From assembly GCF_029227855.1 (NCBI RefSeq), contig NZ_CP074356.1: 64,000 bases of DNA; one strand, given 5' to 3'. The stretch is from Escherichia coli. GTDB lineage: Bacteria; Pseudomonadota; Gammaproteobacteria; Enterobacterales; Enterobacteriaceae. The translations under genes were made by a program, and so were the position numbers. Below, in pieces: positions 27,530 to 27,656 of this stretch (positions within the stretch are counted from its first letter, which is position 1; each line of letters starts with the position of its first letter). Under the pieces are notes generated by a model that saw only the letters and a program-made list of their open reading frames with translations, did not search any database and had not been told where the DNA came from.

Positions 27530-27656
27530 TCCCTTTGCCGGGTGCTGTCGCCCGGCACTTAAATCTCTTTGGAAGGCGTCTCGCAATCTGCTGAATTTAG
27601 CGGTGAAGAGTGCACAGCCGTTGCCTATACTCCAGGCAGGAACTGGAGGAAATCTC

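Follow-up and report, generated by a model that had tools for sequence, protein, structure and literature searches.

The ahr-yjgR spacer of an Escherichia coli genome as the operon-less alternative to the L-idonate (idn) gene block of K-12

The short spacer between ahr and yjgR in the E. coli DNA studied here (64,000 nucleotides of contig NZ_CP074356.1, referred to as the window) is very probably the ordinary operon-less allele of an old two-allele dimorphism for the idn genes, with the two alleles being switched by homologous recombination. According to this interpretation, the 127-bp interval would consist of a terminator hairpin for ahr followed by the promoter, leader and ribosome-binding site of yjgR, and in the alternative allele a 5.09-kb GntII/L-idonate block (idnK-idnDOTR) replaces 89 bp of the spacer. 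Both alleles would be old, each with its own junction sequences conserved across genera, and switching would occur through homologous recombination in the flanking core genes rather than through repeated insertion and deletion. The strain would thus be without both the L-idonate pathway and the subsidiary system for gluconate, and gluconate use would be expected to be kept via GntI.

In the window, ahr (yjgB; positions 26510 to 27529, plus strand) encodes an NADPH-dependent aldehyde reductase (NCBIfam equivalog NF047908, 551 bits vs. a cut-off of 470) that, over 26510 to 27526, is 98.8% identical to K-12 Ahr at the protein level. The TGA stop codon of ahr occupies positions 27527 to 27529 (the sequence there reads ...gccgacttcTGA) and the ATG start codon of yjgR occupies positions 27657 to 27659; these coordinates place 127 bp (27530 to 27656) between the two genes, which is the distance given in the initial annotation. 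The yjgR gene (27657 to 29159, plus strand) encodes a full-length HerA-like (DUF853) P-loop ATPase (Pfam PF05872, HerA_C, 843 bits) that is 98.2% identical to K-12 YjgR. Further downstream, lptG and lptF (29320 to 31502, minus strand; NCBIfam TIGR04408 and TIGR04407) represent core synteny anchors with K-12, and the proteins encoded by lptG, lptF and pepA are 100% identical to those of K-12. On the left side, the gene for leuX tRNA-Leu(CAA) (26230 to 26314, minus strand; identified with ARAGORN) has the same relative position as in K-12 and is the attachment point of a variable island.

The gap itself had been described as free of coding sequence, and the list of open reading frames indeed gave nothing credible. 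The only frames touching the spacer were an extension of the yjgR frame to an upstream GTG and an antisense ORF of 120 aa (27332 to 27694, minus strand); the latter overlaps both ahr and yjgR, has no Pfam match and was rejected as spurious. An Rfam scan of positions 27200 to 27900 yielded no match even at E <= 1, and a search for idn homologues across the 64-kb window found none.

The placement of the K-12 idn genes between ahr and yjgR, which had been stated in the initial annotation, was confirmed by the annotation of NC_000913.3; the gene order there is lptF, lptG, yjgR (b4263), idnR, idnT, idnO, idnD, idnK, ahr (b4269), leuX, so that in K-12 the idn genes are found at this site and not elsewhere. 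When the window was aligned to K-12 (by direct sequence comparison and BLAST end-points), the idn block was found to replace part of the spacer at two sharp breakpoints. The left breakpoint coincides with the ahr stop codon (27529|27530), with the stop codon of the convergent idnK located 3 bp further in K-12, while the right breakpoint is located at 27618|27619, 38 bp upstream of the yjgR ATG; the sequence shared by both genomes (CGTTGCCTATACTCC...) begins at 27619. Between these breakpoints K-12 carries 5,087 bp (idnK-idnDOTR) as compared to 89 bp in the window. The spacer is therefore composed of an 89-bp segment private to the empty allele (27530 to 27618, plus strand), with no match in idn+ genomes until approx. 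27619, and a yjgR-proximal segment that is common to both alleles in the alignment (27619 to 27656, plus strand). Overall, the window shares with the GntII/L-idonate locus of K-12 (Bausch et al., cited in PMC7924626) the same slot, i.e., ahr/yjgR beside leuX, and orthologous flanks with 98-100% protein identity, but all five idn genes are missing and the private spacer is found in their place.

The hairpin gccgggtgctgtcgcccggc, which had been noted previously in the spacer, was located at 27537 to 27556. RNA folding predicted a 9-bp stem with a 4-nt loop at 27536 to 27557 (plus strand), in which 27536-27544 pair with 27549-27557 (including 6 G-C pairs), starting 7 nt past the ahr stop codon. 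The 49-nt segment from 27527 to 27575 showed a folding energy of -17.4 kcal/mol (z = -2.56 vs. dinucleotide shuffles), and a consensus terminator scan flagged the hairpin as terminator-like; its tail (CUUAAAUCUCUUU) contains 5 T in 8 bases, enough for the lenient scan, with a weak and non-continuous U-tract. A hairpin is present at the same position in E. albertii and C. werkmanii, with differences in the loop or in a stem extension. K-12, on the other hand, is without the hairpin and its ahr converges on idnK. Taken together, these features suggest that the hairpin is probably the ahr terminator.

Closer to yjgR, a MAFFT alignment of 7 sequences from 4 genera identified an invariant block, TTGCCTATACTC (27621 to 27632), which contains a -10-like TATACT (27626 to 27631) located 25 nt before the yjgR ATG, and a Shine-Dalgarno sequence (GGAGG) is found at 27645 to 27649. 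A sigma-70 consensus scan of positions 27300 to 27800 returned no promoter match, and a canonical -35 box is present in neither allele; the invariance of the TTGCCTATACTC block is the one feature that suggests a role of the shared segment as yjgR promoter. As the right breakpoint is located just upstream of this block, both alleles would retain the putative yjgR promoter core and would differ at the would-be -35 position. Published SELEX promoter tables (PMC5493296) assign a peak to yjgR that lies between yjgQ and idnR and is uninformative with regard to the spacer.

A survey of 5,426 complete E. coli genomes showed that empty and idn+ alleles coexist in the species and that their breakpoints are constant, as would be expected for the presence/absence polymorphism proposed initially. 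A contiguous (empty) ahr-yjgR junction was found in 3,212 genomes (59.2%), and a 91-bp query covering the private spacer (27530 to 27620) matched 3,222 genomes, in which it was 95-100% conserved. The idnD-idnO genes were present in 2,054 genomes (37.9%), the K-12-type idnR-yjgR and ahr-idnK junctions in 2,052 and 2,051 genomes, respectively, and an ahr'-idn-yjgR' segment that was at least 80% intact in 2,037 genomes; approx. 160 genomes (3%) lacked the 3' end of ahr. As the 2,054 genomes with idnD-idnO are matched by 2,051 to 2,052 genomes with K-12-type junctions, a location of idn at another locus, which would have spoken against the initial annotation, is essentially unseen among the E. coli genomes surveyed. 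These data describe a clean two-allele system at one locus, with K-12 representing the minority state (38% vs. 59%). The initial description of the idn genes as absent is thus correct in that the genes are not found here, but the word implies a loss from the K-12 state, whereas the empty form is the majority form and is not a simple deletion of the K-12 arrangement. For the source strain, absence of idn from the remainder of the genome is expected from the population statistics and the 64-kb window.

A small number of genomes showed further changes at the locus. In strain CP55_Sichuan (NZ_CP053731.1, positions 8746 to 9079), ahr survives as a pseudogene fragment of 236 bp, and the empty-type spacer before yjgR is reduced to its right-hand portion, beginning at approx. 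window position 27579. In a clinical isolate (NZ_OW848980.1, positions 7001 to 8468), an IS1B insertion is accompanied by an adjacent deletion in which idnO was lost entirely, together with most of idnD and the 5' portion of idnT; here an idn+ allele has decayed independently. IS1-mediated internal idn deletions were found in a few genomes.

Close relatives were found to differ in their idn state. Nissle 1917 carries the empty allele and both CFT073 and clone D i2 are idn+; similarly, O55:H7 strain DEC5E is idn+ and O157:H7 strain 4276 is empty, with the standard empty-type spacer. Comparison of the O55:H7 and O157:H7 strains showed approx. 12 kb from lptG to argF to be almost identical, with mismatches between leuX and ahr (38 in 1,301 bp; 2.9%) and in approx. 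1.1 kb within yjgR. The limitation of the mismatch clusters to leuX-ahr and part of yjgR points to a recombination tract rather than a new deletion. Based on this strain pair and on the patchy distribution of the two states, we infer that the alleles are swapped by homologous recombination. A comparison of K-12 with the B2 strain clone D i2 showed 98.6-100% identity for the idn genes, 95.6-97% for ahr and 92.6-94.6% for yjgR; as idn is less diverged than its flanks, these data suggest that the flanks have been heavily recombined and that the common ancestor of the idn alleles in E. coli is comparatively recent.

Two further observations were made on the surrounding genes. The leuX islands of the above pair differ, with a type II Zorya system in O157:H7 and a MobH-relaxase element in O55:H7. 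Moreover, yjgR shows unusual variability for a core gene, with approx. 93-96% DNA identity between the window and K-12 or clone D i2, as compared to 97.6-99.8% DNA identity for the adjacent lptG and lptF; this variability could reflect recombination beside the hot spot at leuX, or the HerA-like ATPase may be under diversifying selection.

Both alleles were also found outside E. coli, when outgroups from a species-representative genome collection were searched with tblastn and blastn. In E. albertii and in the type strain of C. werkmanii, ahr adjoins yjgR with spacers of 132 and 139 bp, respectively. The local alignment of the window spacer with that of C. werkmanii reached a score of 66, as compared to 15.7 +/- 2.6 for shuffled sequences (0 of 2000 shuffles reached 66), and the empty spacers of both species are clearly homologous to that of the window. 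The idn+ arrangement was observed in Citrobacter sp. FP75 (ahr-idnK-idnD-idnO-idnT-idnR-yjgR), where the idnR-yjgR junction is homologous to that of K-12, and in a Salmonella-type contig whose IdnD falls into a cluster that mostly bears the name Salmonella enterica. In this contig, ahr-idnK-idnDOTR is followed directly by lptG; yjgR is missing, and approx. 50 bp of the K-12-type idnR-yjgR junction are kept after idnR. The place of yjgR is taken by approx. 200 bp (contig positions 9339 to 9545) that include a REP-like palindrome (GCCGGATGGCGGCGCTAACGCCTTATCCGGCCTAC). A search for literature on the Salmonella locus tags STM4481-4486 found none.

DNA identities of the idn genes between K-12 and FP75 ranged from 78 to 83% (82 to 85% for the flanks), and those between K-12 and the Salmonella-type contig from 77 to 80% (80 to 88% for the flanks). 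This similar divergence of idn and its flanks is consistent with co-divergence and speaks against a recent exchange between genera. In addition, the flanking genes group by genus rather than by idn state, and the private sequences have diverged between genera approximately as much as the flanking core genes. The outgroup data suggest that each allele, together with its private junction, is at least as old as the divergence of Escherichia and Citrobacter, or was exchanged very early. Overall, Escherichia includes both alleles in E. coli and the empty allele in E. albertii, Citrobacter includes the empty allele in C. werkmanii and the idn+ allele in FP75, and Salmonella shows the idn+ junction; as IdnD has been reported from another C. 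werkmanii isolate, this species may be polymorphic as well. There is a nearly even chance that these data reflect a trans-genus polymorphism, in which both alleles would predate the split of the genera or would have been exchanged very early, niche-dependent selection would act on the use of L-idonate or 5-ketogluconate, and recombination would shuffle the alleles within species.

In other genera the slot or the genes were found in different arrangements. Kluyvera carries idnK-idnDOTR in a different genomic context, and an insert of approx. 1.8 kb lies between ahr and yjgR in Enterobacter cloacae, Pseudocitrobacter faecalis and Enterobacter sp. Ag1. In E. cloacae, a gene on the opposite strand (contig positions 8217 to 9863, minus strand) encodes a 548-aa protein of the Dak1/Dak2 dihydroxyacetone-kinase family. 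As read from E. cloacae, a third kind of cargo that is free of mobility genes thus occurs in the slot. A homology of the empty spacer with the sequence upstream of yjgR in these Dak alleles, which was suggested by a MAFFT alignment, was discarded as local alignment scores were at the level of chance (16 vs. 14.6 +/- 2.4 and 14 vs. 14.9 +/- 2.5); these alleles are thus of no use for polarising the change.

With regard to the direction of the original change, it is not far from an even bet that idn represents an islet that was acquired horizontally and entered an empty site, the empty form being the ancestral and idn+ the derived state. The atypical composition expected for such an islet was observed, as the GC content of the idn block is 47.4% vs. 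54-56% in ahr, yjgR and lptFG; the low divergence of idn relative to its flanks between K-12 and clone D i2, the separate context of idnK-idnDOTR in Kluyvera and the different cargo of the slot in Enterobacter and Pseudocitrobacter (a Dak1/Dak2 kinase gene as read in E. cloacae) also fit an acquired islet. On the other hand, the block contains only idnK, idnD, idnO, idnT and idnR, and a search of the K-12 block for signs of a mobile island (integrase, transposase, flanking direct repeats, tRNA site) found none except for a shared 12-mer (see below). Moreover, idn is found directly after ahr in Escherichia, Citrobacter and the Salmonella-type contig, with species-level divergence, and this shared position and divergence indicate that any insertion would predate the three genera. 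A simple insertion would also be insufficient, as the idn+ allele lacks approx. 77 bp of the empty spacer. An intermediate allele with idn and the full spacer was found in none of the 5,426 genomes; no genome covered at least 80% of a chimeric 275-bp query joining the idnR 3' end to the hairpin spacer.

The opposite direction, with idn+ as the ancestral state of the Escherichia-Salmonella-Citrobacter clade and the empty form as the product of a single ancient deletion anchored on the 12-mer TCTCTTTGCCGG, is a reasonable though tentative possibility. The K-12-type junction is common to the three genera, and the empty spacer has the 12-mer at its left end (a perfect copy in O157:H7, with 11 of 12 bases matching in the window), as the K-12 idn block has it at its right end, just before the shared sequence. 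The 12-mer score was reached by 29 of 2000 shuffles, which, for a test carried out post hoc, is of borderline significance, and the match is weaker in Citrobacter. A second event would furthermore be needed for the loss of approx. 77 bp from the idn+ allele, and the missing intermediate weighs against a deletion as it does against an insertion. Relative to the 12-mer, the idn+ allele exceeds the empty one by 5.05 kb on one side and falls short of it by approx. 77 bp on the other, so that two events are required in either direction.

It is very unlikely that the spacer represents a functional element of its own, such as a small RNA or protein or the remnant of a mobile element. Its conservation among the 3,222 E. 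coli genomes and the structured hairpin would agree with such an element, but this degree of conservation is typical of E. coli intergenic DNA, the 89 bp are dispensable in 38% of the genomes, the hairpin is not REP-like, and neither Rfam (for the spacer) nor Pfam (for the antisense ORF) yielded a match. The least probable explanation is that a K-12-like idn block was recently deleted in this strain or its lineage. Such a deletion would find some support in the occurrence of idn at this exact site in K-12, in B/BL21 and in many B2 strains and in IS1-mediated partial deletions such as that in NZ_OW848980.1, but it is contradicted by the presence of the same spacer and breakpoints in 3,222 E. 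coli genomes as well as in E. albertii and C. werkmanii, and by the lack of a significant match of 27530 to 27618 to either strand of the K-12 idn block, which shows that the sequence of the empty allele is not contained in that of the idn+ allele and hence is not a simple deletion scar.

The interpretation of the spacer as the operon-less allele of an old dimorphism can be compared with two previous reports, in which the presence/absence polymorphism of idn is already published (PMC7924626, PMC8545132). Nissle 1917 was reported to lack idnK-idnDOTR, whereas K-12 and CFT073 have these genes, and both D-gluconate and 5-keto-D-gluconate still support growth of the idn-less Nissle 1917 (PMC7924626). 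The window shows the same idn-less state, and the spacer in the Nissle 1917 (EcN) genome is 97.8% identical to that of the window; that report (text on Figure 3D) covers gene content and growth phenotypes, rather than junction anatomy, population frequency or comparison across genera. In a study on pks and ExPEC (PMC8545132), idnODRKT was likewise an accessory operon, found at frequencies of 83% among pks+ and approx. 31% among pks- genomes and missing in one ST95 clade; that study reports a statistical association, without an analysis at the level of the locus. What is added here are the junction anatomy, the frequencies among complete genomes, the evidence that the empty form was not cut down from the K-12 allele and the age of the alleles across genera. 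For annotators and metabolic modellers, the expected lack of the GntII/L-idonate pathway in this strain has small practical value. An accessory metabolic operon kept at intermediate frequency without a mobile element is of modest evolutionary interest, as would be the trans-genus dimorphism, if true; the locus presents two old alleles with fixed breakpoints beside the leuX hot spot and provides neither a new mechanism nor a new question.

The ahr gene is known to delimit the leuX hot spot on the core side (panRGP preprint 10.1101/2020.03.26.007484, citing Lescat 2009 and Touchon 2009). The idn/empty site is located one gene deeper in the core, outside the tRNA-integrase island, and differs from the hot spot in lacking an integrase and att repeats and in having just two main alleles. 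On the island side of leuX, the window contains a group II intron reverse transcriptase/maturase (22801 to 24324, plus strand; TIGR04416, 341 bits) and a truncated integrase fragment (25118 to 25669, minus strand) that matches only positions 132 to 301 of a 413-position integrase profile, which suggests that the island is degraded or mosaic. Strain M217, which has a junction 100% identical to that of the window over a 931-bp query, carries an intact integrase and a P4-like element in its leuX island, as compared to the truncated integrase and group II intron of the window.
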